Source of the DNA: Pseudovirgaria hyperparasitica
Taxonomy: Eukaryota
Reading direction: 5' to 3' (one strand)
NCBI GenBank assembly: GCA_010093815.1
Contig: ML996593.1
Length of the DNA stretch: 64,000 nucleotides
Position 1 is the first letter of the stretch. Every line of letters starts with the position of its first letter. The translations under genes were made by a program, and so were the position numbers. This document shows positions 3,257 to 64,000 of this stretch, one piece after another. The notes below the pieces were generated by a model. The model saw only the letters and a program-made list of their open reading frames with translations, was not told the origin of the DNA and searched no databases.

Positions 3257-3339
3257 GGTACATGCGAATGGATTCTTGCTAATAGTAGAAGTAATGTAAT
3301 ACGTCTATCACCTATGAAAAGAGACGTTGTTATTTCCGT

Positions 3340-31139: not shown

Positions 31140-31788
31140 CGTTCTCCTAGAACCTAACGAGCTAGAACTAGTACACGCGTATTCTTACCCGTATCTTTCT
31201 ACCTTCTTTCTACTTTTATATCTAATTTAAGAAGATAAAAGATTTAAAAAGTAGATATAATAACTAATTAGCTATATATATATTCTTTTATAAGTTCTTT
31301 TTATTCTTATATAGTCTCTTTAGAGAGATTAAGAAGAATTTTTATATTTTTTATTAGATTAGATACTATAATAGACCTAGATAGACTACTCTAGTCTATC
31401 TATATTTTATAAGAAGTAAAAATACTAGATACTTCTCTTACTCTATTCTTATAGATTAGATTAGTATTAAGATTATTAATATATTAAGTTATATTAGTTA
31501 TAAAGTATACTATTTTCTATCTAAGTATCTAGTTAGTTATATTTATATATCTAACTAGTTTACTACTATCTATATTAATTATATATAATATATACTACTA
31601 CTATAGCTATAATAAGATATCTAAATTTAAGAAAATCTATTATTACGCTTAGTAGTCTTATATATAATACTTAGATAGATATAGATTTATATCTTTATAG
31701 ATACTATATTATAGTTAATCTACTACTAAACTAATATTAGAGAGTTTCTTAGTAGATATAATATACTTTATAGTCTTTTTAGAGTAAT
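31140..31788. mobile_element. Older, heavily RIP-mutated repeat (left part), host of the nested chromovirus
   Basis: Almost no CpA/TpG. The reverse complement of 31501-31615 matches 52555-52675. Confidence 0.7.
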
Positions 31789-32026
31789 TGTAATAAGTAA
31801 AGACGTAGGATAGTAGTCTAATAGTTTATAGAGAGACATAGAAATGTATTTATAGAGTAGTCTTACTCTTATACGAGGTTAATTCCTAACGAGCAGGAAT
31901 CGGTTTATACGGTCTACTTATATAGTAATCTCGCTTAACCCAGCTAACTCATTCTAGCTCTAGCCGCTACGTGGCTATATGGATTAGAATAGTCTATATA
32001 GGTCCGTTAGGGTTCCCGTCCTAATA
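31789..32026 (-). repeat. 3' LTR of chromovirus
   Basis: Begins TGTAA on the + strand. Matches 39527-39764, differing almost only by transitions. Confidence 0.95.
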
Positions 32027-32505
32027 ATATTCTTCTTCTTTTTATACTTCGCCCCAAAGCACTTAAGTATATATAATTCTAAGTCTCTATAATCTATTAT
32101 ATATCTATATATCCGTGACTAAGTTCCTATAATATTATAACTATCCTTAATATAGGTAAACTCGAGATTCTAGTTTACTTTTACTAGTTTATACACGCGC
32201 TTATCCCCTGCTTTATAGCTACTACCTAGAACACGTAATTACTACTTTAGTTAAGTATATATTTAGCTTCGCTCGCCTTTAATTTTATTCTCTAGTATAT
32301 CTATCTCGCTCTTAAGGTAAGTCGTTAATTCATATACTATCTTCCCTAGTTTAGGTTTAGAAGGGTCTATTATAGTCTATTCTTATTAGAACCGGTTCTA
32401 TATAACCTATTCGCGTTATTATAGTTACTAATTTAGCTTCGTTAATTACCGTTAAGGGTAGACGAATATTCCTTCCTTAGATCTCTAGCTAATATATATA
32501 TATAG

Positions 32506-33821
32506 ATGTCTAATACTAGTCCTATCTCTAAGTCTACCTCCTCCTCTCGTAAGACTCGCTCTAAAGGTATTATCTTCTCCCCGGCCACGCCGGCTAAGAA
32601 GCCTATCTATTACGGTGGCACGAAGGCGCGCTCTAAGTTAGAGAAGAGAGTAGCTAGGGCTACTACTACTACTTCTACCTCTACTACTAATATAGCCACT
32701 AGTCGCTCTAATCTAGGTAATTCTAGTACTAAATTTATGGATAAAGCGGTCGTAAGTTCTCCCCTTATTCTAACGCGCACGCCGTCTACTCTACCTCCTC
32801 TAGAGGATAAAGAAGATCTCGTTACGGACGATAATCGCGAGCCCTCGCGCTTACCCACACCGCCGCCTCGCCACTCTCCCTTCCGGTCTAATATAGACTA
32901 ATTTAGTCGCTCTAGGTCCTTTTAGGACCTTAATATTCGCTCTAAACCCTAGCCTACTAATAATAAGGTCTAGGTTACCGAGGATACTAAACGTAGTTAC
33001 GGTTTACGCTATAGGAAAACGGTAAACTACGGTTTAATATACTATAAGTATATTAAGGGCTATATAGCCGGCTCTAAGTATCTCTTTCGCTCTAACTCTA
33101 GTATTAGCTACTACTCTACTAACCGCGACGGGCCTATACGCCCTATCTTTACTCTACCTACCCGCTACCGCCGCTATACTATAACTAGTAAGACTTATCT
33201 ATAGGTAAGTATAATAGGCTATCTTAGTCTAGTATAATCTAAAGTTATCCGCGCTAATACATTCTTAGGTTTCTATATATATATAAGATATATATAATGA
33301 CCTTCGTGTCTATAAGACCCTCGGGGGTCCTTATAGCTATCTATCTACTATATAGAGGGAGTTTAGGGAGCGCTATAAGCTCTTTCTAGAGGTTATTAAA
33401 GTATAAGTTACGAACACGTTAATTATTTTTAACACCTATTAATATTTCTAGCCGCCGCGAGATCCCTAGCGCCTAGACTATCTATTCTAGAGAGTCTATC
33501 CTAGCTATAGAGACCGTAGAGAGGATTTACTCTATCCCCCCTTATCCGTCTCGCGCTACTAACGGATCTTATAAGAGGTCTACTATTTCTCCCTCTAAGT
33601 CGCCTCGTAAGAGGGTATATATTCCCTTCTAGATTATTCTAGATTATATTAGCTAACTTTAGACCTAGTCGCTACGCTCTAGCGCTTAAGGCTCTTCCCT
33701 CTAGGCTCTAACGGATCGGGTTATTACTCTAGAGGCTAAGGTCGTTATCCTCCGCTACTATATTATATAGTTAGAGAGGACTATACTAGAGGTTATAACG
33801 GATGATAAGATAGGGGAGTAG
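32506..33821 (+). pseudogene. RIP-mutated, intron-containing antisense gene carried by the chromovirus (~384 aa)
   Basis: Exons 32506-33204, 33269-33402, 33452-33614 and 33663-33821 join in frame (1155 nt). All internal stops are TAA/TAG, explicable as RIP of CAA/CAG/TGG. Confidence 0.75.
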
Positions 33822-36800
33822 CTCTATAGTTCTAGCTCTATATATTAGCTCTATATATTCTAGATCTACTATAGGTGGTACGCGCTAGCTCTATTTACCT
33901 AGCTTTTATCTATTTTAGTCCTTTTTTAGACCGTTTAGATACCTATCGGCTAGTTTCTAGTAATTTAATTCTTAACTTAATAATATTATATGTGCGCTCG
34001 CTTAGCTTATAACTATCGGTTTCTATATTCTAATTTTCCTTAAGTTACCTAAGTATGGGCACCGTATATTAATTAGTTTATCTCTATAAATTCTATTAGA
34101 GTATCTAAACTAGTAGCCTAGTAGTTATTAGTTCGGGTACTCTAACCTTTTATATTTCGTGTTAAGAGTTTAATTCTATAGTAGGGTACCTTTTTTAGGT
34201 TCTTAGTCCTATATTTTTCTCGTATATAATGGTCCATGTTAGTCCATTCTAGACTCTTCTATTATGGTATATCGCGTCGCGTTCCTAAAATAGTTACTTA
34301 CGCTTTCTTCGCGTCTAGTAACCGTATAATACTTAAATTATAGGGCTACCTTATAGAGTTTTCCTAGTGCGCGTCTAGATTTCCTAATTAAGTACTTTAT
34401 TCTCTACGGTATCCTTCTTCTTTTTATAACGACCGTAACGTCGCTATGTTTATATTAATAATATACTATTCTATATCTTTTACTTATACGCAGCTATTAT
34501 AGAACTTAAGATATATACCGCTAGTTCCTAGGTATCCTCGTCCTTAGTATAGTCCTTCTAACGGATTCTATATTTCTAAATACTATCTTTATTAATTCTA
34601 TGTTTAATAATATAGTCTACTTCGAACACGTCTAGTCTATCTTAGGGTATAATAGAGTATAACTATACGTTTATACGGTTATATATATTAGGTCGAAATC
34701 TTTCGAGTAGTAAGACGTGGAATATATTATAGATTCTTATATCGCTTTCTAAGTCGAGCTCGTAGGCTCTTATACTAATATAACGTTTAATTCGGAAGGG
34801 ACTAGCCATTTTATAATCGAGCTTCTTATTTACTCGTGATATTTATATATTATAAATGTTAAGAAGGACCTCGTCGCCCTCCTCGTACGTCTAATCCTTA
34901 GCTAACCTATTATAGTACTTCGTATATAAGTTATTTACTTATTAGATTATAGCGCGATAGTTACGTGCGGTTTTGAAGATTTTAATCGCTAATTTCTAAG
35001 CGTGGACGTTCATGTCTATTATTCGATTAAATTAGACTATATAAGGCTTAAAACCTATCCTTAGACTACGTCCGAGGTTCGCCTAGAAAGGTATAATACT
35101 AGTTATACTATAACGACTATTATTATATACGAACTCTACTATACTTAGTAGGGAGGCCTAGTCGTCCTACTCGAAATTATAGAATGCGCGTAGATAGCCT
35201 TCGAGCGTCTGGTTCTACCACTCTATCTAGCTATCTATCTAAGAATAAAATACTATAGATATGTTCCTATTTATACTTACTATTTTATAGAATAATATCT
35301 AGAATTTAGACGTGAAGGTACTTCCTCGGTCCGTAACGATTCTTTTTAGTATACTATGGACCTTAATAATCTCGTTCTAGAATACCTACGCTAGTTCTTT
35401 AGATATAATCATCTTCTATACTAGGATATACCTAGATATCTTTATAAGTCTATCTACGATAATAAGAATAGAATTATAACTTATTCTAAGTATCTTACTT
35501 AGAGATAAGTTAACTATAAAATCTATAGTAACGTCTTCCTATATAAAGAGGGGGACTAAAAGAGGCTATAAATTCCTATATAGCTTATGCCTAGGGGCCT
35601 TCGTTCTTTAATAAATCGGATAAGTAGCTATCTATTCTTTAATATACTTAGGTATATCTTCCTAAAAATAGTACTAACGAATTAAGCTTAGGGTACATAT
35701 ATACCTAAAGTATCCTACTAGATTAGCGTCATAGTATCGACTAACTACATTAAATCGCGCCTTACCCATTAGTATATAGTACTTTCTATTATAGTAAAGT
35801 AAGCTATCCACGAAGGTCTACTTATAGTCTACTTTAGTCCGTAATAACCTATCTTACTATATTTTACGTAACTTTAAAACTATTAGGTCTATCTTCTATA
35901 GATCCATAATTAACTAGGTAAGGTTAATTAGATATTCACGCTGGGCATTATCGCCCTTCCCGACAGCGCTAATAAATGGCCTACTAGGGACTTCGGTACC
36001 GCGTCTTTGGTTACTAGCTTCGGTCTTAGAGATTTAATTACCGGTATCGACGTTAGTATCTCGCTAATTACCTAATAACTTAAAATCTAACCTTGTCCTC
36101 GAGAGTTAGGCCTATAGCTACTCTAGGACTCTATAGCTACTATAATCCTAGGCGCCTTCTTTATAGTTAGATCTTCTTAATATTCTATTAGCTAGGTTTA
36201 TACTTCTAGATCGATAGTAGATTATAAAGTGAAAGTTCGTAAGCTACTTAGCCTATTAAATCTATTAACGGTTTAAAACTATTATACTTATAAACCCCTT
36301 TAAGTTATAGTAATTAGTTAGTAACTCGATATTATATATAGTACCTTTAAGATAATATCGCTACTATTTAAACGACTCTACTATTACTAGTAGCTCTTGG
36401 TTATAGATAGTATATCTAGTCTTAATATCGACTATTTTACGCGAGAAGAACGCAACTAGATACTATTAGACCTTTTTAGACTTAGTTAGTCTAGACTAGG
36501 AGAGAATATCTAAGATTATAAATTCTAACGCGTTAGTTTTAACGTGGATAGGTTTAGTCGGGTCGAAGTGCACTAGTAATAGAGTAGTTATAAATGCCTC
36601 TTTGATTTTCTCGAAGGAGGCCCTTTCGCCTTCTAATAATTCTATAGACTGCGATTTAATATTATACTATTTCTATCTACCGTGGACCGTAATAGATGAA
36701 TCTATAGTAGTAGTATACGCGTTAAGTGGTACTACTAGCCAGGAGAAGTACTTAATAAATTTTCAGTAGTAATTAGCAAATCTAATAAAGACACGTATAT

Positions 36801-39526
36801 CTCGAACCGATTTTAGTTTAGGCTAGTCCACGATAGTAGTAACCCTATCCCTTTCTATAGTTATACCTTAATTAGTAATAACGAAGCTAAGGAAGTTAAC
36901 GTGGTCCTAGTGGAACTTATATTTAGATAGCTTAATATATAGCTTATGTTTTTCTAGCCTATCTAGGACTACGCGTACGTGCTAGATATATTCTTCTTTA
37001 TTATTAGAGAAGATAAGAATATTATCAAGGTATATAATGCACGTCATATCAAGTAGGCCTACTAGCGCGTTATTAATATACGCTTAGAAGGTCCCTAGCG
37101 CGTTAGTTAGTCTAAAAGGGACTACTATATACTTAAAGTATCTATAACGGGTCCTAAACGCCGTTTTCCACTTATCGCCCTTCTTAATATATAGGCGGTA
37201 GTAGGTGTCGTATAGATCGAGCTTAGTAAAGATCTTTACGCGCCCTAGTCTATTAATAGACTTAGAGATAAGAGGTAGTAGGTAATAATTCTTCCGTATA
37301 ATATTATTTAGGCTACGGTAGTCGATATATAGACGGAGACTTCTATTCTTCTTCTTTATAAAGAGGATTAGAGCTCCGGCTAGGGATATACTAGACCTAA
37401 TCTATCCTCGTATAAGGTTCTTTTCGATATATTCTCGGAGGACCTATAGCTTAGATTCTAATAGAGGGTAGATGGGTCTATATGGGGGTTATTAACCGTT
37501 CTTAAGATTAATAATAAGATTAGTAGGTTGGTATTAAGGTAATTCGGACGAGTCGATCGCTAACGCGATATATTAGTATATTTTATACTAATATAGTAGG
37601 TTTTCGTCTACTTTAATACTAAGCTCTCTATTTTAAGTAAATAAGAGGATATAGATAGTAGAGATTACCTTTTCGTAGTCCTTCTAGAATTATTTATCAT
37701 CGACTAGCTATACTAGGTTCTATTATAGTGGGTGCATGCGCCAGCTAGCTGTTTTCTAGATGAAGTCTAGTTTCGGGTTATATTTTTCGAGCTATAGTAT
37801 ACTAAGAATCATGTCGAAGGGGCTATCTACCACGATAAAGGTTAAGTAGTAGGGTTTCCACTTCCCCCCGCTATTCTAGATACTATATTTAATAGTATAG
37901 GTACCCTATAATTTAATAGGACTATCGATACTATGGAAGGTAGCACCTATTAGTACTTAAATATTAATATTAAGTTCTCGTGCTCGTTAAGTCGATATAA
38001 CGTTAGTAGCTAAACCGCTATTAAGTATTATAGTCTAATGTTATCCACGGGGGACCTCGATAGGCCTAGCCTATAGTTTAATATACTAGTTGGCTAGTTA
38101 TCCCTCTATTTTAGTTACGCCTATAAGTCACGAGGGTTTCTTATAGATAGTTAGTTTTTTATATTATATACCGGGTAGTTAGGCGCGATGTATCCTAGCT
38201 ACTAGCACTTATAGTATATAACTAACTTAGTATCTATATTAGTATTTAGTGGTTTCCTAGAGCGGTACTCGGGTACTATATGGCCTATCCTACCATAAGT
38301 ATAGTAGGTAACTTTAGGTCGTTTATATAAGTCGTTTCTCGCGTCTCGATATATTAACTAGTAGGATAATCCGTGGTACGGGCCTCGTCCTCTCGAGTTC
38401 GTGGAGTAGTAGTATCTACGAGGTATTCCGCGCGATCTATTACTAAACTAGTCCTCTTTAGATGATTTCATATTAGATCAGATTAGTAGAGATAGTTATA
38501 CGCCTATACGGCGTTAGTTATTTATTATACGCTAGTATTATTCTATAAGATTCGCGAGTACCTAAAGGTTAGTAGAGATAGACGTTATAAGGTTAATGCG
38601 TTCCTTTACGCTCGGATTAAGGGACCTTTTAAAGTTATTATATTATTAAACCATGCGATCTTCCTTAGCTTCTCTCTAGAGAGGTCGGAGGTATTTAAGG
38701 AGTTATAACGGGGATTATCTTTCTCGCTATTAAGTCTTAAAGATATGGCTCTAAGCCTATTCGCGTCGCTCGGCTCTATCGCCAAAGTATTAAAGAAGGA
38801 ATTTAGTAAACGTGTTCTAGTTATATATATCCTTAGGGTGTTCGATTTAATATACTATCTAACGTTTAGATAGCGTTAGGTCTAGGTAGTTCTATATAAA
38901 CCTAATCTTATTACTATCGTTCGTGAATAGGTAGAAGAATCAGCTATACTAGTAAGCCTATTTATAAAAGCTCTTCCGGGTTTTACCGTCAAAGTAAGGT
39001 GGTTTCTTAGGCCGAGGTAACTAGGATAGTAATAGACTTAGTTAGACTATTTCGGCTTAAGTTAGTCTATATTAGTATAGGTTAGTTACTACTAGTACTA
39101 AAGCGCGTAGTGCGGCTTCGAGTCTAGCGGTTCGTTCTTATACTTCGTTAAGTTCGCGAAGTTACTATTTAAGCTAAGCCTAACGCTACCTCTCCGTGTA
39201 TAGCCTAGTATATATATTATTATAAGGCGTGGTTAACGTTAGTCGGTTCTAATGAATTAGTTCGTTAACGTTAATAGGGTCTGGTCTTATAGTAAGGATA
39301 GGTCTAGTATGGTATAAACTAGACCGCGATAGAGTATGATAGACTCTAGTTATTAGTACGATAGCTTATAGGGTATACTTATTAGTAGAGGTGGTCGTAG
39401 GGAGACTATTCTCCTCGTTTAGATTTAGGGAGAGTCTCTCATGGGAGGTCGTGCCACGGGTATTATAGCGTATAGTAGGAGCTATCTCTATAAGCTACCG
39501 TCGTACTATATAGAGAGGAATTAAAA

Positions 39527-39764
39527 TATAATAAGTAAAGACGTAGGATAGTAGTCTAATAGTTTATAGAGAGATATAGAAATATATCTATAGAGTAGTC
39601 TTACTCTTATACGAGGTTAATTCCTAACGAGTAGGAATTGGTTTATACGGTCTACTTATATAGTAACCTTACTTAACCTAGCTAACTCATCCTAGCTCTA
39701 GCCGCTACGTGGCTATATGGATTAGAATGGTCTATATAGGTCCGTTAGGGTTCCCGTTCTAATA
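39527..39764 (-). repeat. 5' LTR of chromovirus
   Basis: 238-bp direct repeat of 31789-32026, followed by TSD GTAAT. Confidence 0.95.
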
Positions 39765-39769
39765 GTAAT

Positions 39770-40875
39770 CTTATTACTTAGCTAATAGCTTACTAATATT
39801 AATATCTTATTTATTATTCTAGTTAACTTATAGTATCTTACTAGTAGATAGTATACTAGTTAGTTTATAGAAAGCTATTATAGTCTTATCTTATATACTA
39901 TTTAAGTTATTATCTAGAAAAACTAGCTTTATAATCTTTTTATATATCTTATAATATAGTAGTCTATTTAGAAGTAGTTTAATAAGATAAGATTTATACT
40001 ATTTATAACTATAAGTAACTATAGTAGTATTCTTAAGTCTAAAGCTATAATATTAATAGATATTCTAGTAGTATTTAACTATTTACTTTAGTACTAACTC
40101 CTTAGTATAGAGCTTATACTTAGTATTATAGATCTAATTTAGATACTTCTATATATACTTACTAATTTTATTATTAAATAATCTTATAGCGTACTTTCTA
40201 TACTTATAAATTAACTTTATAGACTTAAGAAGATTAACTATCTTCTCTAGAGACTCTAGTTACTTAATTAGTATATCTATCTAGTATAAGTAATATTCTA
40301 GCTCTCTATAGTTAGCTAGAGAATAAGCTAACTTACTTAGACTAGATAGAAGACCTAGATAGCTAACTAAATTAGATGTTAGAATAGAGTTATTAGATAG
40401 TAGTATAGTTAGATAGAATAATAGAGTATATTCTATTATAGAATAAATTACTACTAAACCCTTTTAATAGAAATCTAAGAGTATATATATAAAGGGATAC
40501 TAATCTATTAGATATATAACTATTTACTATCTATTATACTATCTCTAACTAAGTTAGCTAAGATATATATAGATCTAGTCTAGTCTTTAGCTAAGTTCTA
40601 ATAAAGATATATTATAAGTTAACTTAAAAAGTAGAAGTAGTACTAGTACTACCTTAAGTATATAGTAGATAACTTATTAATTATATTTATTTCTTATAAA
40701 AGCTTATATAGTTAGACTATAGCTAGACTAGATAGAACTATTAATTAGTTTTATTATATTTTCTTATATTAGAGTTTCTAAATTAGTAATAGATACTAAA
40801 GTAATTCTATATTACTTTTAGTATAAGTATATATTAATATATATAATTAACGTTAATCTTGTATAGGCCTTAGTA
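39770..40875. mobile_element. Older, heavily RIP-mutated repeat (right part)
   Basis: Extreme TpA richness; continues the relic split by the chromovirus insertion. Confidence 0.7.
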
Positions 40876-42586: not shown

Positions 42587-43424
42587 TTAGTCCTTCTTCA
42601 ATGGCTTGTATATCTCTTCAATGCCTTTGCTCGTGATAATGATCATCTGCAACCCATCGCCCACCTCAATGTGCCTCTCTACAGCACTACTGAACGCATC
42701 TTCAACCAGCTGCTCGACATCTTTCCTCGGTAACGGCTCTTGCACTCTTTGCCGCAGTTCATGTCCAGTTCCACGCCCAGGAATACACTGGTTCTTATAG
42801 TTGACCTGATTATCTAAGAAGGGCATGATCAGACTCGCGGCCGCGCCGCCGGCCCTGCACTGCTCTCGCTCATAGCTGCCCACAGGATCGTAGCTGTATA
42901 CCGCACCCTTGCCCTCCTCATCCAGTCCACCTAGGATCGCATGCACGTAGTAAGGGAAGAAACGCTTTCCGTACAGGATATGCGAGAGCCGTTGCGCACA
43001 GGCTGCCACACTCATAGTCTTGCCGTGTTGGTATTTGTACATCTTGAGAATAGTGTCTAGGCGCTCCTTGAGGGCGTCCCCATCCGCCGCAAATCCGACG
43101 ACGGATAGGGCAATGCGTGACTCCGGGCCCCCAATTCGGAACACTTTTGGGCAGTAGCGGGTATTGATGCTGTAGCCTGAAGTGGAGCGCGTGTCGCCGG
43201 CGATGATGGTAAAGTCGGCGCCTGCGATACCGAGAGTAGAGCCACCATTATCAGTGTAACTGGCAGATGTAAGTATTGTGAGTTAAGAGAAGGGCCAGTT
43301 AGGTAGTTTGGTCTCACGGATAGAAGCTATGCTGCCGTGCACCTTCTGATGCTGTGTTTGGCTGTTGGGCGAAGGAGTATTTAGGAGTCCCCGACGGCGG
43401 CCCAGGGTGGAAGACAGACGCCAT
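42587..43424 (-). CDS. PRE7: 20S proteasome subunit beta-6, 2 exons
   Basis: HSFYP|YTDNGGSTL..AGDTR, LYGKRFFPYY, YSYDPVGSY, ERHIEVGDG, terminal LKKD. Intron 43317-43260. Confidence 0.95.
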
Positions 43425-43559
43425 AGTCGACAGTTCCTGACAGTGTTGAAGGAGTTAAAAGGCCAGTGATGGAGGATGAGAGGATATGAAACGTTGTGGT
43501 GTTGAGCTCGAAGGTTGACGTGGAGCAAGCTGCCTAGTCCACTAGTCGAGCTTCTCAGA

Positions 43560-43935
43560 CGTCAATGTATTTATTAGATAGAAGGGTTTTATTATATATT
43601 ATATTTTTAGACTAGCTTACTAAGTAATATCTAAAGGTTAGATTTTAAAGAATTATAATTTATACTATATACTTATTTTTAATATATAAAAATCTTAATA
43701 ACTTCTATAGAAAAGTAATAAGTTAAAGATATATATACTACTATATCTATAGAATAAGAAGATAAAAATTAGAATATATAGATATAGAGTAGAAGTAAGA
43801 AGATACTAGAGATTAGATTAGTAAAATTATCTATTATAAAATTACTATTTAGATTTCTCTATAGTATATCTAAATATACTAATTACTTAAGTAATTCTCT
43901 ACTTATTTACGCTAAAATAGATAAGGTCGATAGAT
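43560..43935. mobile_element. RIP-degraded AT-rich relic in a divergent promoter
   Basis: Sharp AT-rich island with RIP dinucleotide bias. Confidence 0.65.
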
Positions 43936-44028
43936 TCTAGTGCGTAAGGAAAACCATCACGTCGTTCTTCGTACAGCCACAACTAGAAGCTCATTTTACA
44001 TGTTGTAAGGCCTGCCACGACTTTATAC

Positions 44029-44862
44029 ATGATGCTTGGGCTTGGTAAATATGATAGTGATGATGATGGAGAGAAGAACAAACCTACTAGAAAGGTAATA
44101 TACTATCTATGATTTATGATACATTATACTAATAGCTACTAACATCTTTAGGAAAATGCTACCTACATTAAGGTATTGCCTTCCCCGACGACGTGTAGGC
44201 TCGTGGTCCACCAAGGTTATAGAAGATGCTAATGTTTACCTATAGTACCGAATAAGCTTCAGAGTGTACCAATCTCCAAAGAAGTCGCGCATCGACCGTC
44301 GACGTTGAAATTAGCAGGAGAAAACCGCACAGTAACTCCACTGCCTGCATACCAAAATGGACGAATGGATGTCCTTATGAAGGAAGAGGCAACAGAAGGC
44401 CCTCTGGGACAAGATTACAGGCCACTCTCGCCAGACGCTGCAAACAGTTCGCTGGTCCAACAACTGACCTTGCCTCCGGTTCCGGACCTCGGCGTCCCGC
44501 TCTCGCCTCCCGGTTCGCCGCCTCCAAAGTCGACCAAATTGTTCGCTCAATTCCTCAAGCTCAAGAGGGATGGTATTCATTTCAACCAGAGACTCGCAAA
44601 GACACCTTCAATTCGAAATCCGAACCTGCTTAAGAAACAACTAGAATTTGCAGGAATCTCAGAAGAGGAACAGCACGACACTGCTATGCCTCACAACATT
44701 GTACCCACTGGATTTCCAGTGTGTGCGTATTGGGAAGAACTGAACAGAATACGGGATAGCATTGAAAAGAAAACGGAAGCTCAGCAAGCGCAAGCGCACC
44801 GAGAGGCCGTAGACTTCGTGCCAGCTTTGATTAAATCTCGGGACGAAATGGACCCATACTGA
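44029..44862 (+). CDS. HCNGP/SAP30BP-like protein
   Basis: MMLGLGKYDSDDD start; PLSPPGSP..FAQFLKLKRDGIHFNQRL..SIRNPNLLKK. 5' exon structure uncertain. Confidence 0.8.
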
Positions 44863-44904
44863 CCCCAATACAGTCAGAGTTGGCTTAAGTACCAGCATGG
44901 CTTC

Positions 44905-45095
44905 TCCTATAGCGAAATTTAACTAAGATAAGGACTAAGAACTTAAGAAAAGTGGTAGTAAGTATATCTAATAAGGAGAATAAGCTAAGATAAGATTAAG
45001 TATAGATATCTTAATTAATTTATAGTAATATTATTAGATAGAATAATATAGTATAGTCTATTAAATAGTAAATTACTTCTAATTCTTTTTAATAA

Positions 45096-45190
<95 letters not shown>

Positions 45191-45380
45191 NNNNNNNNNN
45201 NNNNNNNNNNNNNNNNNNNNNNNNNNNNNNNNNNNNNNNNNNNNNNNNNNNNNNNNNNNNNNNNNNNNNNNNNNNNNNNNNNNNNNNNNNNNNNNNNNNN
45301 NNNNNNNNNNNNNNNNNNNNNNNNNNNNNNNNNNNNNNNNNNNNNNNNNNNNNNNNNNNNNNNNNNNNNNNNNNNNNNNN

Positions 45381-45475
<95 letters not shown>

Positions 45476-45615
45476 GATAGCTCTCTTTAAATAGACTTTA
45501 TAGAAATAAAATAAACTTATAGAAGAATAAAGATATATCTAATTACTTATTATATCTACTTTTTAAAGCTCTTATATACTTAGAATATATATATAAATAT
45601 AGAAACAGTATTATA
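44905..45615. repeat. AT-rich RIP relic containing a long (TAT)n microsatellite and an assembly gap (N 45191-45380)
   Basis: Pure TAT repeats at ~45098-45190 and 45381-45474 flank 190 Ns. Confidence 0.9.
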
Positions 45616-45938
45616 TGGAAAGATGGGGGAGAGAACACGCGTGCACTAGTGCCAGCGACTTAGGTTCTAGGAAAACGACGGATGGTTCAGTCGATCGTTC
45701 CCCCGGTATAGACCACCCATCTGCATACCCAACGTATACCGTGCCGGGCATTTGAGACTACGTTCTACCGCTTACGTCGACTGCACCGAACGAAGGCTTG
45801 CTATATACCTCTCCACCATCATCATCCCGTGGGCATAAACTTACCAGCGCTTTATACTGGAGCGTGTTCTTGAGTCGCAATCCCAACGTGTCCCCGCATT
45901 TACCCTCTACACAACCTTGATCGTTCACCACCTATATC

Positions 45939-46972
45939 ATGACTTGTACGTAGCCACCATCATTGTGCTCTTTGAAGCCATGCCTATTGACTGACTCAAT
46001 ACTCGCAGTACCTCCAGAAGCCCAAGCGTCCTATGCGACCATCATTGACAGCATCCTCAAAGGCGCTGATCTGAATACCATCTCTGCCAAGCGAATTCGG
46101 AAAGGGCTCCAGGCTCAGCTCGAATATGACATAAGCGACCAGAAGGTAGAGCAATGCGCCTGGGCATGCCTATAATTTGGTGACTGATTTTCTATCATAG
46201 GAAGCGATCAATGCCTTAATATACGCGCGGTTCGATAAACAAAACGAGCGCAACGAAGCCACAGCCGCCCCGAGCATCGAGGTGCCACCGCCCCCTACGA
46301 AGGCCGCTACGAATTGCATCAAGACTGAAAATAAGATTAAGAAGGAACCTACTCCTCTGCCTAAGAAGCGCTCGGAACCTCATGACTGCGACGAACAAGA
46401 CCCGACGCCATCAACGGAGCAGTCACCTCCACCGAAGAAGAAGATTAAGAGGATATCTCAGTCTCAGGAAGAAGACGATGCAGCATACGCGGCACGCCTG
46501 CAGGCAGAGCTAAATCGGGTCCAAGGTCGCTCCACTAGAAGAAGGAATGATCGCAAGAAGCCGAAACCGGTTGCAAAAAAGGCCAAGAAAAAGAGTGCCA
46601 CCAAAGTGAACAGCGACGACGACAGTGATGTGGCTTCAGGCGATAAAAAGCCGGTAAAACGTACAGGAGGCTTCCATGTTAGTGACACGCATAGAAATGG
46701 TTACTTATAACAAAGCAATACTAACAGCCCAGCAGAAGCCTCTTAACCTCTCCCAACCTCTCTCTGAGCTTTTGGGCGAAACTCAGCTCTCACGTCCACA
46801 GGTTGTGAAGCAGATATGGGCATATGTCCGCGAGCGTGAACTACAAGATCCTAGTGATAAGCGCCAGATACGCTGTGATAACCGTATGCACGCTGTCTTC
46901 AAGACCGAGCGAGTGCAAATGTGCACTATGAACAAGATTCTCAGCCGACATTTGTACGCTGTTGACGAGTGA
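45939..46972 (+). CDS. DEK-C plus SWIB/MDM2 domain protein (Uaf30/Tri1-like), 4 exons
   Basis: IIDSILKGADLNTISAKRIRKGL; GGFH|KPLNLS..LSRPQVVKQIWAYVRERELQDPSDKRQIRCD. Confidence 0.9.
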
Positions 46973-50408: not shown

Positions 50409-50645
50409 GGCCCTCGACCGCAAGCGCGTGAGTCGTAGTGAGCACGGAAGGGTGAACGTTGGCTTTTCGCATTGTATGCTACCATCCCTGGGAGGCTCCG
50501 GGTAGGCTGTTGTCGAGCTGAGCATCTTGATGGCAGCGTGTCCTTTTGGGTGGAGAAGGGAGGAATTCCATCGTACTTTACCCCACATCAACATAAAAAT
50601 TCACATAATATTGACTTGACACGAGTTTCAGGAAGTCTTGTGCTT

Positions 50646-51355
50646 TTAGCTTCTCCGTGCCTTCGCCTGTGATCGGCTCTTTGATCTCTCCTTGTGCCTC
50701 GTTATCTTGCGCTCCGCTTTGCTCTCATATCGAAACTTAGGCTTGGCTTTCTTTGCCTTCTCCTTTGTAGGCTTGTCTTTGGTCCATACTCGCTTCTTCA
50801 AATCCTCCCCGACCTCGTGTTTGGCTGTAGTAGATATTCTATCGTCGTGTTGATCTCCAGGCTCGATGTCCACGTTAAACATGCCATCCCTCGTGATATT
50901 CACAGCCTCGACCTGGACTGTGATGTATTTGTCTTCATCAATGTACTCGTCTTCACGGGACATAGGTACATCGTCTCCAAAGCCATTCCAATCTCGATCC
51001 TCATTCTGGCTGTCTCCCGATTCATACTCATCTGATGGATCGCCATTCACTTTCCTGAGTGCTGTGTTGACCTCGTCAACATGTTTCTCCAAGTCTTCCT
51101 TTCTTTGTTTCCGGAGCTGTGGTACAGACGTCGTCAGCGTGACCATTCCTAATGCAAAATAGGACATACCTTTGCTCTCTCAGCGATTTTCTCCAGTCGC
51201 TCTTTCTCAATAGCAAGTTCCTGGGCATGCTTTATCCTCGCCTGTTTGCGTTTGTGGAATCCGGTGAGATAATCTTCGCGGGCAGCGAAGTCAAAAGACA
51301 CCTCGTCAACTGATCTGAAATGAAGCTTCTTATGCCGCTTCGGTACAGGACCCAT
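50646..51355 (-). CDS. RRP17: Ribosomal RNA-processing protein 17 (Nop25 family), 2 exons
   Basis: EVSFDFAAREDYLTGFHKRKQAR; KFRYESKAERK. Confidence 0.92.
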
Positions 51356-51479
51356 GACGATCTATGGTGTTATTAGTAAAGCGAATAGTTCATCTAAACG
51401 ATAATCTAAGTAAAAGGCGCCTAGCAGTCTCTAATTAGAGCCGAAAGATAGTTAATACCGAGATTAGTCCGAATAGAAT

Positions 51480-53745
51480 GATTACTTATATGAAATGTAC
51501 TATATTATTTTAGTATATATCTTATAATAAAAATATATACTATTATAAGAAGATTTTATATATATATATATAGAATTAATAAAAGAAGTACTAGACTTAG
51601 AATAATAATCTTAATACCTTTATTAATAAATTATACTAAGTATACTTATTACTAATATATATATATAAACTATTAACTATATAATATTACTAATATATAA
51701 AGATACTATATATATACTTAAACTCTACTTAGAGATAAGAGTATAGACTATCTATCTATAAATACTAATATATAAGCTCTATATTTATTAGTTAAGAATA
51801 TTTCTTAAATAATAACTATAGTAGTCTAGATACTAATATACTCTAGTTTCTACTTATTAGAAATTTAATAAAGACTAGACTAGATCTATCTATTAAGAGT
51901 AAACCCTAGATATACTTTATACTAGTATACTTATATCTATACTATTCTTATTCTACTAAGTAAGACTAAGTAGTTCTCTTTTTAATAATATATACTCTAC
52001 TCTATATCTTAAGAGAGCTAAGTAGATTTCTACTTTCTCTTTTATTAAACTTACTTAGTAGATTCTATTAATACTCTTATATCTATATATATATTATATT
52101 TCTATAATATTAAGTTTAATCTTATTTTACTCTCTAGAAGTTCTACTATAGACTCTAGAAATAATATATAGAGTAATATTAGTAGTAAACTAGACTAAGT
52201 TCTATATCTAAATATTACTCTATAAGAAGCTAAATAAGCTCTCTATAATCTAATATAATAGTAACTAGTACTCAAGTAGAAGATTTCTATCTTAGAAAAC
52301 TAAGTAGAAAATCTATAAAATCTATTAGACTCTATAACTAATAATCTACTAAGATCTTTTATTATAGTAATCTTCTCTCTCTTATAGACTAACTAAGAAC
52401 TCTTAGAATCTAGAGACTAGAAGCTATCTATCTAGAATAGTAAAGTAGCTATCTTCTAAGACTTTCTTCTTTAGTTATATAGCTTCTATAAGATATAATT
52501 AGTATTAAAACTAAAGCTATCTCTAGAATACTACTAGAATACTATATATAATACTCTTATTATAGCTATAGTAGTAGTATATATTATATATAATTAATAT
52601 AGATAGTAGTAAACTAGTTAGCTATATAAATAGAACTAACTAGATATATAGATAGCGACTAGTTTATATACTTTAAATACTAAGTTCTCTTTACTAGACT
52701 ATCTTAGTTAATATAATAATATTAGAATAATTATAAGTTTATATAATCTTCTCTCTACTATACTATCTATACTAACTATTTTATATTAGACTAGTAAAAT
52801 ATCCTTCTTCTAGTATAAGATATAAGTAGAATAGACTTATTATATTACTAAAAACTTAGCTCTCTAGAGCTTAAGAATACTCTATTTACTAGTTATAAGA
52901 TTATATATAGAATAAATAAGATATCTATAACTCTATTACTTCTATAAACTACTATTTAACTAAAAACTTTTTCTCTTAGTTAATACTAGATACTAGTAAT
53001 CTAATACCTTCTATTACTATTTCTAACTATCTATAATAATAGCTTATATTACTACTAGAGAACTTAGTTCTTCTAGAGTATTAACTATTTAGTTATAGAT
53101 AAGTTAATTAATAGATATTTAGAAATCTACTATTACTTAAGATAATACTTAATTATCTTATTACTAACTATCTACTACTCTCTATACTAGAATATTCTTT
53201 ATAAAGTAGAAGACTAACTATTAAGAATTTTCTACTATAGTAGTTAATAAATTATCTAGTATTATAAGAGATATATAACTTATTTCTAAATAATCTATTA
53301 ATTTAAGCTTAGTATCTATTAACTACTAGACTCTCTAGAGTATTCTTAAGCTTATTAGACTTAGTTAATTATATAGTAAGCTCTAGTATAGAAGCTACTA
53401 TATCTAACTATTCTAAATATACTAGTACTTTAGTAGAATATACTATACTATATTAGATAGATATAGATACTAGTAATAGTAGTATACTAGCTAGAGCTCT
53501 AATAACTAATAATAGAGACTTATAGTAAGATAGTAAGCTATAATTATATCTATAATCTAGTAGACTCTTACTTAGTAGGTAGGTATTTTATAAGATAATA
53601 ACTAAAACCTAATAGATAGTAGTAAAAATCTACTATTTAATAATAATAAAGATAGTTAAGAGTTTAGAATATAAGAAATTAGATTCTTCTAGTCTAACTT
53701 AGATTATAGCTTTAGAGATAGAGATATTACTTTTACTAGTTAGAC

Positions 53746-53778
<33 letters not shown>

Positions 53779-56700
53779 TCTTCTTTAACTAGATTAAAGA
53801 CGCTACTATAGCTAGAGAAACTAAGACTATTAAGTTAAAAATCTTCTAGTATCTATAAGAATATATCCTTAAGTAGTTTATATTAGAATTATCTAATCTT
53901 ATAAAGAAAGTACTCTATTACTTATCTAGTTTAGATACCTAGACTATAGTCTTAATTAAGTAGTTTAAGTAGCTATTATCTAATACTCTATTATCTCTTA
54001 TAATATAAAGATATACTCTTTAAGAGATCTACTTCTAAACTAATATTACTTTATATATATATATTATAGCTTATAACTATAGTACTATATAACTATTAGA
54101 CCCTTCTAGCTAAAATACTTAGATATTTATATAGAATAGTATTAATATTCTTCTTTACTAGGGTCTATCTCTACTAATAGAATCTATATCTCTAGTCTAG
54201 TTTATATAAACTCTATAAGTAAAATATAAAGAATAGTACTAACTTATCTACTATTATCTTAGTAGTATATAGTATAGTACTTCTAGTTAATTTACTTAAT
54301 AAGAAAGAGAAGATAGTTAATATAATAGCTCTTATTACTATAACTTACCTTAACTATTTAATAACTCTTAAGACTAGAGCTAATCTAATAGCTATTATTT
54401 TATAGCTAATTAGTCTAATTAATATCCTAACTTATACTAGTCTTACTCTTCTTAGTAGTTCTAATAGAGACTAGAAGGTTTAGAGAATAGTAGTTAAAAG
54501 ATATTAGCTAATATATATTAGCTACTAGCTATAATAGATAGTTCTATAGATTATCTAACCGGTCCTAGACTAACTAATAAGCCCTATACTAGCTAGTCTC
54601 GGTCTCTTAGTAATAATAGATAATTTACTTAAGTACTATAACTATTCTACTAGGCGTGTAATATCTAGAAAGAATTATATAATCTAGATATTAAAGCTAC
54701 TTACTATATAGAGATTAAAGAAGCTTTCTTCTATCTTAGACTAACTAATATAGATACTATAGAACTAGTATAGTTTAGTAATAAAATAGATCTTACTAGT
54801 CTTAACCTACTATCTAGTAATATTAATAAGAGTCTATCTTTATAATTTATAGTATACTAAGTAACTAATATATATCTAGTATACTAGATCTAGTATAATA
54901 TTTATAATAAGATATTTCTATTATAAAGAAAGCTATTTAAGTACCTTAAGAATAGAAAGTACCTTAAGATAGCTATAAAGACTAAAGTTTCTCTATATAG
55001 TTATATAGTTCTAAAGTTAAATATTATATATTATAATATTTAAGAGAATATAGTACTATTATTAGTTAATAGTCTACTAGATACTAGCTAAGTATATAAA
55101 GAATTATACTATATCTAAGTTAAGGCCTTACTTAGTCTTAATAGTCTAGTTAAATATATCTATCTAGATATAGAGAGTATAGTAATACTAATTAACTAAG
55201 CTTTTCTTAAGTAATAGAACCCTACTATCTAAGTACTTATTTATCTAGCTATTTCTATTTAGAGAGTAGAGGGAGTTAAGTCTATAAAGCTAACTAAATT
55301 TATAATTATTATACTATTTCTTCTAGACTAAACGTCTAATAGTTTAACTACTATAACTACTAAAGTATTATATAAGATATATATTCTTAACTATCTATAA
55401 GTAGATCTTCTTCTTAGAATAGATATTATAGTATCTTAGAAGATAGATATCTATATAAGTATATATATAATAACTATTAGTAAATATAGTGGGATTACTA
55501 TACTAATCTTTACTACTACTATTTAACTAGTAGTATACTAGAGAGTAACCATTTTATAGTATACTATTCTCTAGCTATAAATACTTATACTAGTTCTAAT
55601 TATAATCTATTACTAGTATAAGTTAGCTATAGAAGATTATATATTCCTATAGAATCTTATAAAAAGATATAAGTTCCCGCTAGCGTCCTTACTAAAACCA
55701 CGACTAAAAAACTACCTTTTCCCTTATAATAAATTAACCACGCCCTTAATTAAAGATCTATTCCGATAAATCATGCTCCTAGCTACGCTAAGTAATTCTA
55801 TATACTTTTTATAACTTATAGACGCGGTATTATAGACGAGTTCTAGTTATAAGCCTCTAGTATCATGTTTAGTAGTAGCTTGAAAATTTGTACGTCTTAG
55901 CCGTGGATTTTCCAGCGTACCTTAGTGCCTTAGTACCTTAAATTGAGACTATACGTAGTCTACCAGCCGTAGGCCACCCTAGTTTACTCTAATATATATA
56001 AGTATAAGACTTAGTTAAGATAGAGATATCTATATATATCTTACTAACTAAAATATAGTATATATATTTATTATAAATTATAGATTTAGATTAGTATATA
56101 TAAATAAGAATATAAGACTTAGTATATTAATAGATAAAATAGATACTCTCTATATATTTTAGACTAAAGTAGTTTCTTTAGATATTATAGAGAGATTATC
56201 CATAAAGCTTACTTAGCTTAATAAAGTTAAATAGATAGATATATTTTATATAAAAATTTATACTAAAGATAAAGTAACTATCTAAAGGTTTAATAATATT
56301 ATTTAAAGTTATACTAGCTTATTTTATAATACTAGACTTATAAATATTCTAGAGAAAGACTAGATATAAATTCTACTAGTAAGTAACTAGAAAACGGCTA
56401 GTATAAAGCTAAGCTACTATATCTATCTATTAGAGATAAGTAGTAAGACTATTATTAATAAGATATATAATAAGCTCTATATATAAGGTTATATAGAATA
56501 TCTAATATAATAAAGACTATTTAGTTTTCTAATATTTATTATATATACTATAGTAAAGTTACTTATCTAAATATTATATAAGAATACTAGTTAGATAGCT
56601 AGAGATATAAGAGACCTAAATAAGATTAGTATTAAGAACTTCTATCTATTACTACTATAGAGTAATATTATCTAATATATAGCTAGAAAGAAGTTTATAT

Positions 56701-61107: not shown

Positions 61108-61683
61108 TATTAGGTACGTGGCCTACTAGTTAATTATACATGTATATAGTAGTTATATATAAGTAGTATACTCTACTCTTAAAGTAGTAGCTTTAACATT
61201 CGGTTCTTTTAGTATAGTTAGTTAGTATATAAAGTCTATCTTATTATATAATCTTAAAGCTACTATAGGGTTATAGGTTTAACTCTTGGTCTAGTTAACT
61301 ATTATTAAATTTTATATAATTCCGTTTAGCTTACTACGTTATATATACTTCTAGATATATATACTAGATAATATATATTATTATAATAAGTTAGTATATA
61401 TAGTACTAGAGACGGTATTACGAGTATTAATTAGGTATATATATAGTTTATACTAGGCCTATTACGGCTAGTTTAGTTTATCTTTTATAAGGTAATATAT
61501 CTATAATATATAAGGGCACGCGTCTTTAAAAAGGGGAGATATTATTAGGTACATGGCCTACTAGTTAATTATATATATATATAGTAGTTATATATAAGTA
61601 GTATACTCTACCCTTAAAGTAGTAGCTTTAAGATTTAGTCCTTTTAGTATAGTTAGTTAGTATATAGAGTCTATCTTCTTATA
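61108..61683 (+). mobile_element. TRIM-like non-autonomous LTR retroelement (576 bp)
   Basis: 141-bp LTRs at 61108-61248 and 61543-61683; AATCT TSD at 61103-61107 and 61684-61688; PPT aaaaaggggagatat at 61528-61542; 294-bp non-coding interior. Confidence 0.9.
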
Positions 61684-62054: not shown

Positions 62055-64000
62055 TATAAGAATTATAGACGTAGAATAGTAGTCTAATAGATTATAGAAG
62101 AATTTAGAAATATATTTAAAAGGGTAGTCTACTCTTATAATAAGGTTAATTTCTAAAGAGTAGAAGTTAAGTATATATAGTCTACTTATATAGTACTATC
62201 GCTTAATCTAGCTAACTTAATCTAGATCTATCTATTATAGAACTATACTAGACTATAGTAGTCTAGTTAAGTCTATTCTAGTATTAGTTCTAATAATATT
62301 CTTCTTCTTTTTATACTTTACTCTAAAGTACTTAACTATATATAAATCTATAATTCTAGAAGTATTATATTTATATATATATCTAATTAAACCTATATAA
62401 TATTATTAATAGCCTTTATATTAGTAAACTTAAAACTCTAGTTTACTTTTATTAACTTATATATACGCTTATCTCTTACTTTCTAGCTATTACCTTAGAG
62501 ATAGCTCTATAGATTATCTAACTACTATATTAACTAAGCTTATATTTAGTTCTCTTATTCTAAATTTTCTTCTTTAGTATATCTATCTTACTCTTAAGAT
62601 AAGTTATTAATTTATATACTATCTCCTTTAGTTTAGGTCTATTTAGATCTAGAGTAGTCTATTCTTATTAGAGCTAGTTCTATATAATCTATTCGCGTTA
62701 TTATAGTTACTAATTTAGCTTTCTTAATCGCCCTTAAGACTAAATAAGTATTCTATTCTTAGATCTCTAGCTAATATATATATATAGATACCTAATACTA
62801 GTTCTATTTCTAAGTCTATCTTCTTCTCTTATAAGACTTACTCTAAAGAGATTATCTCTACTTTAGCTATACTAGCTAAAAAGTCTACTTATTATAGTAG
62901 TATAAAGGCGTACTCTAAGTTAGAGAAGAAGGTAGATAAGACTACTACTACTATTACTACTAAGGTAGCTACTAGTTACTCTAATCTAGATAAACCTAGT
63001 ACTAGTAGTATAGAAGAAGTAGTTATAAAGCCTACTTATATCTACTCGCGCTATCTATCTATTCTATCTTCTCTAGAGAATAAAGAAGATCTTATTATAG
63101 ATAATAATTAAGAGTTTACGCCCTTACCGCCCCGCTCTAGATACTATTTCTCTTTTTAGTCTAATATAGACTAGTTTAGTTACTCTAGGCCCTTTTAGAA
63201 TCTTACTATTTATTCTAAGTCTAGCCCTTCTAATAATAAGATCTAGATTACTAAGAATACTAAATATAATTATAGTTTATACTATAGGAAAATAGTAAAC
63301 TATAGTTTAATATACTTTAAGTATATTAAGACTTATATAACTAGCTCTAAGTATCTTTTCTACTCTAACTCTAGTATTAGCTACTACTCTACTAATTATA
63401 ATAGATTTATATATCTAATCTTTAAACTATCTACTTACTACTACTACTATACTATCCTTAGTAAAGTTTATCTTTAGATTAGTCTATTAGACTATTTTAG
63501 TCTAGGGTAATCTAAAGTTATCTATACTAATATATTTTTAGATTTCTATTTATATATAAGATATATATAATAATCTTTATATCTATAAGACTCTTAGTAG
63601 TTCTAGTAGTTATCTAGCTTCTATATATAGGGAGTTTAGAGAGTACTATAAGCTCTTTCTAGAGATTATTAAAGTATAAGTTTAGAAACTATTAATTATA
63701 ATTAACCTTAGCTTATAATTTTTAGTTACTATAAGATTTCTAGTACTTAGACTATCTATTCTAGAGAATTAGTTTTAGCTACTAAGACTATAGAAGAGAT
63801 TTATAGTATTTCTTTCTATCTAACTTATACTACTAATAGATCTTATAAGAGATCTACTAGCTCTCTCTCTAAGTTACCTTATAAGAGAGTATATATTCTA
63901 TTCTAGATTATTCTAGATTATATTAGCTAACTTTAGATCTAGTTACTCTACTCTAGTATATAGTTCTCTTTCTACTAGACTCTAGTTAATTAGATAGCTA
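62055..64000 (-). mobile_element. Second, diverged and more heavily RIPped copy of the chromovirus (3' LTR, PPT, antisense gene; truncated by the window end)
   Basis: 62055-62295 aligns to the LTR; 62296-64000 is colinear with ~32027-33730. Confidence 0.9.

Follow-up and report, generated by a model that had tools for sequence, protein, structure and literature searches.

The analysed window, a stretch of 64,000 nucleotides from contig ML996593.1 of the fungus Pseudovirgaria hyperparasitica, contains a Ty3/gypsy chromovirus that lies on the minus strand and has been inactivated by repeat-induced point mutation (RIP). Between the end of its pol gene and its 3' long terminal repeat (LTR), on the opposite strand, the element probably (with a likelihood of roughly 0.6) carried a third gene, a four-exon antisense gene that is now dead through RIP and would have encoded a Cys-rich protein with a leucine-zipper-like tail. 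An initial annotation, made from the letters alone, had placed a spliced, element-borne antisense gene here, starting at ATG 32506 and containing three introns, with a further donor, branch site and acceptor upstream. Every one of these coordinates and motifs was confirmed on the sequence, and the four joined exons (32506-33821, plus strand; pol and the 3' LTR are on the minus strand) give 384 codons and a stop, as had been predicted with a product of about 384 amino acids. The joined exons contain 12 internal stops, all of them TAA or TAG. The proposal of an antisense gene is strengthened by relatives of the element, which match it in position, orientation, exon number, intron phases and the junction between Cys motif and intron.

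The window alternates between DNA of 48-54% GC and AT-rich blocks, and the element resides in one of the latter. A direct repeat pair (31786-32037 and 39524-39775, 93% identical) marks its ends. All six frames between the LTRs were read with X at stops and submitted to Pfam, and matches were confined to one minus-strand frame: RVT_1 (1.5e-20), RT_RNaseH_2 (4.4e-15), RT_RNaseH, SH3_Tf2-1 (6.7e-10) and Chromo (0.0018). Because these families were found only in that frame, the element is a minus-strand Ty3/gypsy chromovirus, with an LTR pair around reverse transcriptase, RNase H and integrase in that order and a C-terminal chromodomain. The Chromo match has 18.6 bits, under the cut-off of 25.1, in the RIPped window copy; homologues of the window pol carry PF00385. 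In total, 1278 homologues matched the window pol at E ≤ 1e-10, the best with about 35% identity. Approximately 2.4 kb of extra DNA separates the end of pol (about 34480) from the 3' LTR, and the antisense gene is located there.

Exon 1 of the gene model is open over codons 1-131. Its N-terminal part is basic and rich in S, T and P and is followed by a Tyr-rich stretch, which we regard as a putative Cys-rich module converted by RIP. At 33166-33198 the letters TAC CGC CGC TAT ... TAT encode Y-x2-Y-x6-Y, and intron 1 starts two codons past the last Tyr/Cys position of this triad (Y-RR-Y-TITSKT-Y-L-stop/GTAAGT, where the slash marks the exon border). Intron 2 is the weakest of the three coding introns and is devoid of a CTAAY branch. 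The candidate intron in the 5' untranslated region (UTR) is retained in a second window copy of this region, copy B, except for a G>A change in the donor. In exon 4, a Leu heptad run (33708-33794) has L at codons 348, 355, 362 and 369, followed by V, so that the heptad tail claimed earlier is indeed present as L-x6-L-x6-L-x6-L. This arrangement has the spacing of a leucine zipper, with Leu at each seventh position over at least four heptads, and by our own estimate about 385 x 0.09^4 = 0.03 such runs would be expected by chance in the model. No basic region of the bZIP kind was found directly N-terminal of the heptads, where the residues are S/A/G-rich and include three stops. A Pfam scan of the plus-strand frames matched no family, bZIP and Zn_clus included.

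The RIP indices of the element are 1.75-2.06 for TpA/ApT and 0.12-0.19 for (CpA+TpG)/(ApC+GpT), compared with 0.80-0.88 and 1.17-1.18 in unique DNA of the window. The effect of RIP on codons was calibrated on the pol gene of the same copy, which was aligned with six intact homologues, and the columns invariant in all six were examined. Three of the four invariant Cys columns now read Tyr, and stops have replaced six of the eight invariant Trp and six of the eight invariant Gln residues. This is the type of change that the initial annotation had invoked when it read the Tyr codons of exon 1 as former Cys motifs. Per 100 codons, the spliced antisense model holds 3.1 stops; the true pol frame holds 6.1 and other frames 5.5-16. 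Freedom from TGA was dropped as a test for coding frames, because TGA is almost absent from every frame and thus cannot discriminate between them.

The low number of stops was evaluated with a best-path test, which takes the fewest stops on any path with at most three jumps of 45-70 nt, does not require splice signals and allows for the reader's freedom in the choice of frame. The best path through the antisense region contains six stops, that through the pol sense strand 11-20. Controls comprised 102 equally RIPped windows, taken from the strand antisense to gag-pol, from the sense strand in the extra region and from 50.6-62 kb on both strands; their minimum was 10, and none (0/102) reached six. 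The last of these sources belongs to an 11.5-kb block (50500-62000) of 21-25% GC with RIP indices like those of the element. The junction at the end of exon 1 was also compared with background: a Tyr/Cys triad followed by two codons and a donor-like hexamer occurred three times in 45,142 background codons and never with GTAAGT.

Related elements were collected with an alignment of 12 pol homologues, which retrieved 69 metagenome loci (L numbers) with pol on the plus strand. The 45 loci in which the pol match ends inside the locus entered the survey, and 37 of these extend at least 1 kb beyond pol. When ORFs (open reading frames) of 60 amino acids or more past pol were scanned for CxxC-x5-8-C in these 37 loci, the motif appeared in antisense ORFs of 14 loci (21 motifs) and in sense ORFs of three (5 motifs); the counts inside pol of the same loci were 5 and 2. 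Two of the surveyed loci, L025 and L026, are identical. In L024 and L027, LTR pairs bracket pol together with the antisense ORFs. Two kinds of antisense gene, here called type A and type B, were distinguished.

Type B, a four-exon Cys-rich antisense gene, is a grouping coined in this analysis and comprises genes in L001, L002, L009 and L065 with the pattern CxxC ... C ... CxxC-x5-7-C and, where intact, 40-50 residues between the CxxC knuckles. In all four, a phase-0 intron lies exactly two codons past CxxC-x5-7-C (VE/GTGAGC, VP/GTGAGT, LA/GTAAGT and LE/GTAGGT at the border of exon 1 and intron 1), and the window gene has its first intron at the same position and in the same phase. For L001 and L002, in which CxxC-x5-6-C precedes the first intron, splicing at canonical sites yields complete ORFs of 266 amino acids (exons of 294/164/142/201 nt) and 296 amino acids (267/227/211/186 nt), respectively. 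Their intron phases are 0/2/0, and the window model has the same architecture, with four exons of 699/134/163/159 nt and phases 0/2/0. Both relatives also possess candidate 5'-UTR introns (GTGAGT...CTAAY...YAG) upstream of their ATGs and C-terminal heptad helices rich in K and E. Exon 3 of L002 ends with ...SPAKR before the phase-0 intron, that of the window gene with ...SPRKR. The L001 locus has long gag and pol ORFs; the L002 locus is circularly permuted, with an ORF bearing CCHC placed after the antisense gene. L009 and L065 are 31% identical (E 6e-30). The initial annotation had likened the triad to half a Zn2Cys6 cluster. That likeness is not supported for this type, as Pfam found no family and no Zn_clus signal in exon 1 of L001, L002, L009 and L065, and the window model has no second triad at the canonical spacing.

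A profile of the four type B exon-1 peptides identified 19 proteins among 57 candidates, and 16 sequences were retrieved. Among these 16, at least nine represent the L009 version and one the L001 version of exon 1 in a RIP-like degraded state, with Cys to Tyr, Asp to Asn and Glu to Lys replacements at motif positions. Such antisense genes therefore occupy repeated DNA of RIP-competent fungi.

The window gene was compared with type B by RIP-aware scoring, in which each window codon takes the score of the best-fitting residue that it could have encoded before RIP and reversion is permitted at TpA sites only. A version that allowed any T>C or A>G was rejected as too permissive, and a fixed-offset decoy control as uncalibrated; normalised decoys of the same length from other RIPped frames were used instead. 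For the whole gene, the score against L001 was reached by none of 1000 codon shuffles (z 5.3), and the scores against L002, L009 and L065 by 40, 20 and 172 of 1000. With the Cys region (codons 157-233), 0 of 582 decoys and 1 of 300 shuffles reached the score against L001; for L002 the numbers were 14 of 582 and 14 of 300. A global alignment places seven of the eight Cys of L002 exon 1 opposite window Tyr residues, with FRSN identical, and the window sequence YYKYIKGY is aligned to CVKCAKGY of L001. With MAFFT, the window peptide was not alignable with the intact exon-1 peptides, and an atlas comparison with exon 2 of L065 gave nothing usable (score 0.77). These comparisons argue modestly for homology between the window gene and type B, confined to the Cys-rich part, and such limited similarity would suit a fast-evolving gene.

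Copy B consists of the 3' LTR and the antisense gene in the same orientation and runs off the end of the window; it is more heavily RIPped (GC 0.25, CpA/TpG gone). Every copy observed in this genome bears RIP damage. Between the exons of the first copy (copy A) and those of copy B, the sole indel is one of 9 nt in exon 1, which is in frame. Outside the exons there are six indels in the 720 nt upstream (1, 1, 1, 1, 15 and 1 nt) and one of 1 nt in intron 2. In intron 3, 46 of 48 bases are the same. Contig pieces that map to 32038-34480 number 6943 in one DNA run and 2541 in a second run of the same sample, and the family is therefore abundant. Variant places along this stretch number 177. Of these, 40 were listed, and among them 19 fall within the gene, all transitions in both directions. 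The listed indels comprise a 3-nt deletion in exon 1 and three of 1 nt downstream of the stop. Among the same 40, none lies in a stop or a proposed Cys/Tyr codon, and the listed variants therefore neither confirm nor refute reversion of Tyr to Cys. One contig per DNA run joins 32866 to 33184, skipping 317 nt with nine other letters between, and represents a deletion variant of the family without most of the Cys/Tyr-rich part of exon 1. Just outside the 3' LTR, a repeat (31501-31617) recurs in inverted orientation at 52555-52675 (91%) and 3453-3525 (78%); the element probably inserted into another repeat family, of which this is a fragment.

Type A antisense genes were found in L013, L018/L024, L025-L027, L047/L056 and L049. 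Their Cys residues are spaced C-x2-C-x6-C-x10/11-C-x2-C-x6-C, with a linker that is often split by a phase-2 intron, and after the Cys cluster come a basic stretch, then a long helix and finally an acidic tail. The ratio of nonsynonymous to synonymous substitution rates (dN/dS) was computed for type A pairs and amounts to 0.15 over 182 codons for L018/L024 and 0.19 over 81 codons for L025/L027, which points to purifying selection on type A at the protein level. Matches of type A to Pfam Zn_clus stay below threshold (E 0.011 and 0.026; 16.3 and 15.0 bits against a cut-off of 21). A structure model of L049, built from three sequences, has a mean predicted local distance difference test score (pLDDT) of 55.8 and is confident only in helix 97-133. 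A PDB sequence search with the L018 ORF returned designed coiled coils only (E 0.023 or worse), and in an atlas comparison this ORF was nearest to basidiomycete clusters. Alignment of type A with type B by hhalign gave a probability of 3% and hence no relation. Past the linker intron, L056 (6152-6394, minus strand) reads C-A-R-Y ... K-stop, where L047 has C-T-G-C ... K-Q; these RIP-type changes (TGC>TAC, CAG>TAG) mark L056 as a degraded type A copy. In L025, ATAAGT stands at the linker intron donor (about 5170-5180, minus strand) where L027 has GTAAGT, and this copy may no longer be spliced there.

Table 1. Coordinates of the chromovirus, of its proposed antisense gene and of related sequences. 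Positions refer to the 64,000-nt window unless a locus is named.
Feature	Position	Strand	Remarks
3' LTR	31790..32029	-	direct repeat; borders refined by alignment and minus-strand reading
Polypurine tract (AAAAAGAAGAAGAA on minus strand)	32030..32043	-	adjoins 3' LTR; read from sequence; presumed role deduced from position
Candidate 5'-UTR intron	32317..32505	+	GTAAGT 32317, GCTAAT 32488-32493, TAG 32503-32505 directly before ATG; predicted from sequence
Exon 1	32506..33204	+	699 nt, 233 codons, 5 stops (TAA or TAG); ATG at 32506
Putative former Cys-rich module	33040..33198	+	codons 179-231: Y179-x2-Y182, Y192, Y202, Y221-x2-Y224-x6-Y231
Intron 1	33205..33268	+	64 nt, phase 0; GTAAGT 33205, GCTAAT 33253-33258, TAG 33266-33268
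Exon 2	33269..33402	+	134 nt, 2 stops
Intron 2	33403..33451	+	49 nt, phase 2; ATAAGT 33403, TAG 33449-33451
Exon 3	33452..33614	+	163 nt, 1 stop; ends ...SPRKR
Intron 3	33615..33662	+	48 nt, phase 0; GTATAT 33615, GCTAAC 33652-33657, TAG 33660-33662
Exon 4	33663..33821	+	159 nt, 52 codons and stop 33819-33821, 4 internal stops
pol (reverse transcriptase, RNase H, integrase, chromodomain), RIP-degraded	34423..37425	-	Pfam on frame read with X at stops
Chromodomain	about 34483-34626	-	Pfam on frame read with X at stops
5' LTR	39528..39767	-	direct repeat partner
Copy B: 3' LTR and antisense gene	62057..64000	+	exon 1 at 62788-63477; blastn 74.3% over 1947 nt
Type A antisense genes	L049:12324-12725, L013:4622-5766, L027:8959-10018	-	between pol and 3' LTR
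Type A antisense genes	L018:3816-4436, L024:7209-7769	-	between pol and 3' LTR
Degraded L009/L001 exon-1 database ORFs	P0126, P0128, P0129, P0131, P0132, P0135, P0137, P0139, P0140, P0138		

Several results weigh against a four-exon gene, and a good part of them is what a non-coding spacer would yield in which TA-rich RIPped DNA offers an open frame, Tyr codons and intron-like motifs by chance. RIP-tolerant triples of donor, branch and acceptor occur 0.8-3.5 times per kb of RIPped window DNA and [YC]-x2-[YC]-x6-[YC] 0.75-6.3 times per 1000 codons. In exons 3 and 4, alternative frames hold equally few stops. After intron 1, the second Cys/Tyr triad is absent at Zn2Cys6 spacing, the Tyr residues of the model frame being spaced x4/x5. 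In two less-RIPped blocks (2.2-4.9 kb and 43.2-46.4 kb), 14 of 28 windows reach six stops or fewer, but these blocks were not counted as fair controls because they possibly hold other genes. The same AT-rich blocks (2200-4900 and 43200-46400) have frame paths with 1-9 stops per 1313 nt and may contain less degraded genes or transposon ORFs. Homology searches added little: a word-indexed search with window exon 1 (X at stops) found no homologue, the best E was 1.9 when every frame of the extra region was compared with the 69 loci by tblastn, and phmmer against 1.84 billion representatives returned the single match P0122 (E 3.8e-4), a tandem-repeat protein that was rejected as spurious. With RIP-aware scoring of the whole gene, 7 of 246 decoys reached the score against L001, and 76, 73 and 130 those against L002, L009 and L065; exons 2-4 gave no signal, 287 and 494 of 558 decoys scoring as high, and the best local alignment with L001 is ambiguous between its two CxxC knuckles. 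By BLASTP, L001, L002 and L009 are not significantly alike, and for that reason the type B grouping rests on architecture. A structure model of L001 exon 1 from four sequences (pLDDT 41.3) is, like that of L049, too poor to show a fold.

The two window copies were compared along the lines of the initial annotation, which expected a consensus to undo stops and Tyr codons and introns to be less conserved than exons. Neither expectation was borne out: reverting the transitions between copies A and B to C/G keeps 10 of 11 stops and turns no Tyr into Cys, and introns 1-3 (78, 67 and 96% identical) are as alike as exons 1-4 (71, 83, 67 and 57%). Both comparisons are uninformative, since the sites hit by RIP coincide in copies A and B. 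Transversions by codon position 1/2/3 number 17/16/28, a weak third-position excess. Against a spacer stand the stop density, half that of the pol frame, and its lack of a match in the equally RIPped windows, the restriction of indels within the model to in-frame ones, the rarity of the junction of triad and donor in background DNA and the agreement of exon number, phases and junction with intact relatives. Individual motifs are not above chance; the ensemble exceeds it. We hold a spacer devoid of any gene to be improbable.

We assign a similarly low probability to an explanation in which the region acts as RNA or DNA, for instance by damping the element from an antisense promoter or by an antisense transcript (through double-stranded or small interfering RNA), or is a fragment of a host gene that was passively transduced. 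In the review PMC7264820, antisense transcripts are considered as possible regulators by themselves; moreover, the window itself offers no measure of protein-level selection, and the gene evolves so fast that types cannot be aligned. However, the dN/dS values of the antisense ORFs in related elements and the four-exon frames, open over 266 and 296 codons, speak for a protein. A one-off transduction does not fit, because both window copies and thousands of contig pieces contain the region and 14 of the 37 related loci have antisense ORFs with the motif. Finally, the product may have been a real protein other than a transcription regulator, such as a chaperone of nucleic acids, a factor serving nuclear import or the assembly of particles, or an adaptor that targets integration, with the Cys-rich module binding protein or RNA. 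This would agree with the failure to find Zn_clus, bZIP or another DNA-binding family in type B or the window gene and with a Cys spacing unlike Zn2Cys6, and nuclear import and other accessory roles are listed as open in the available portion of PMC7264820. Type A, which sits at the same place with exact Zn2Cys6 spacing, a long helix and weak Zn_clus matches, hints instead at DNA binding, a hint limited by the hhalign result for the two types. We consider a non-regulatory protein rather unlikely, although clearly less so than the two preceding explanations.

For the antisense gene that we prefer, the following course can be proposed. The intact gene would probably have been transcribed from a promoter of its own within or beside the 3' LTR, leading away from that LTR towards pol, and splicing would have removed three coding introns (phases 0/2/0) as well as one intron in the 5' UTR. 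Introns that are antisense to the genomic RNA survive retrotransposition; they would have been copied with the element because they are not spliced out of that RNA. The product, about 380 amino acids long, would have comprised the S/T/P-rich basic N-terminus, a probably zinc-binding Cys-rich module (CxxC ... C ... CxxC-x6-C), basic patches that might direct the protein to the nucleus and a C-terminal leucine-heptad helix that might dimerise. Homology to the genes of the relatives, zinc binding, dimerisation and nuclear action are what we infer from sequence; no fold supports zinc binding by the Cys module, because the structure models are of low confidence. RIP would then have turned every Cys codon into Tyr and created the 12 stops, and the gene is therefore dead in the window copy. 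A role in the nucleus, where the protein would regulate transcription or silencing of the element that encodes it, is a tentative proposal with the odds against it; it is preferred because retroviral antisense genes offer an analogy and because type A has a Zn2Cys6-like spacing. Overall, the sequence evidence lends partial support to the earlier interpretation, which appears right on the gene and its architecture; the role as transactivator or anti-silencing factor suggested there stays conjectural.

The initial annotation had recognised no described family for the product. This stands insofar as Pfam yields no match, but the kind, an antisense ORF located between pol and the 3' LTR, had been described before, and the window gene adds a member to it. 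According to the available portion of PMC7264820, such ORFs are relatively frequent in plants, and Boty of Botrytis and Sclerotinia is a fungal case, with functions unknown. The Boty gene brtn is mentioned, for Boty/BcGypsy1, in the parts of PMC8365987 and PMC4227169 at hand. Like the window gene, brtn is an extra antisense gene between pol and the 3' LTR of a fungal chromodomain gypsy element; this likeness is one of position, orientation and kind of element. Its primary description is reportedly that of Zhao et al. in 2011, Virology 417:248. No match named brtn emerged from the word-indexed, phmmer or exon-1 profile searches, and the available part of the supplementary text of PMC8365987 does not mention it. 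The plant genes, namely gene23 of maize Grande and those of RIRE2 (rice), Retand (Silene) and PvRetro13 (Phaseolus), share position and orientation, presence in most family copies, lack of database similarity and an unknown function, and for Grande a nuclear role and an own promoter have been suggested (PMC7264820, same portion). In contrast to the window gene, they belong to plant Ty3/gypsy lineages with no sequence relation shown, and a conserved multi-intron structure or Cys module is not described there. The window gene shares two features of the class termed aORF-3R: its place is the interval from the end of pol to the 3' LTR, with a coding strand opposite to that of gag-pol, and it occurs in both window copies and in the contig pieces and hence in more than a single transduction. 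On coding constraint the signs in the window are mixed, with a low stop density and in-frame indels on one side and a weak codon-position bias of the transversions on the other. For fungal retrotransposons, neither antisense genes of a Cys-rich or Zn-cluster kind nor a conserved arrangement of several introns turned up in the open-access literature searched, and the available part of PMC3248453 does not mention such antisense ORFs.

Two better-known systems serve as points of comparison. HBZ of human T-cell leukaemia virus type 1 (HTLV-1) is a leucine-zipper regulator whose gene is antisense and spliced, with transcription from the 3' LTR. The available portion of PMC7264820 likewise places an HTLV antisense promoter in the 3' LTR. 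Like the proposed window gene, that of HBZ is antisense and spliced, occupies the 3' end of a retroelement and encodes a zipper-type C-terminus, and it provides a model for regulation of the sense promoter. It is a working analogy: HBZ belongs to an animal retrovirus, is a bZIP protein without a Cys-rich module and has no sequence relation to the window gene. Fungal Zn(2)Cys(6) binuclear cluster transcription factors (PF00172), for example Gal4, combine the cluster with a linker and coiled-coil dimerisation, the spacing being C-x2-C-x6-C-x5-12-C-x2-C-x6-8-C. Common to these factors and the antisense genes are CxxC-x6-C triads and a later heptad helix, and type A (L049, L013, L027) has the exact spacing. 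The window type differs, with CxxC-x9/16-C ... CxxC-x5-7-C and its long distance between knuckles; the window gene itself lacks the six-Cys spacing and does not reach the PF00172 gathering cut-off.

Fungal LTR retrotransposons are usually annotated as gag-pol only, and because annotation assumes this, an extra gene on the opposite strand may be overlooked or called a host 'hypothetical protein'. The present case indicates that even a copy wrecked by RIP can be read through its gene architecture and a RIP calibration from its own pol. The window gene is itself dead and without present function, and the wider pattern across its relatives, about a third of which among those sampled carry Cys-motif antisense ORFs at this place, is the more interesting lead. 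One speculative and fairly improbable generalisation is that fungal chromoviruses have a widespread, fast-evolving group of intron-bearing antisense third genes for Cys-rich, probably zinc-binding coiled-coil regulators of transcription, a counterpart of HBZ acting from the 3' LTR, that spans RIP-competent ascomycetes as well as basidiomycetes and includes one lineage with exact Zn2Cys6 spacing; the window gene would be a member killed by RIP and brtn possibly another. If it is true that these proteins regulate the element or its silencing by the host, they would have a bearing on how transposon bursts in fungi start and stop.

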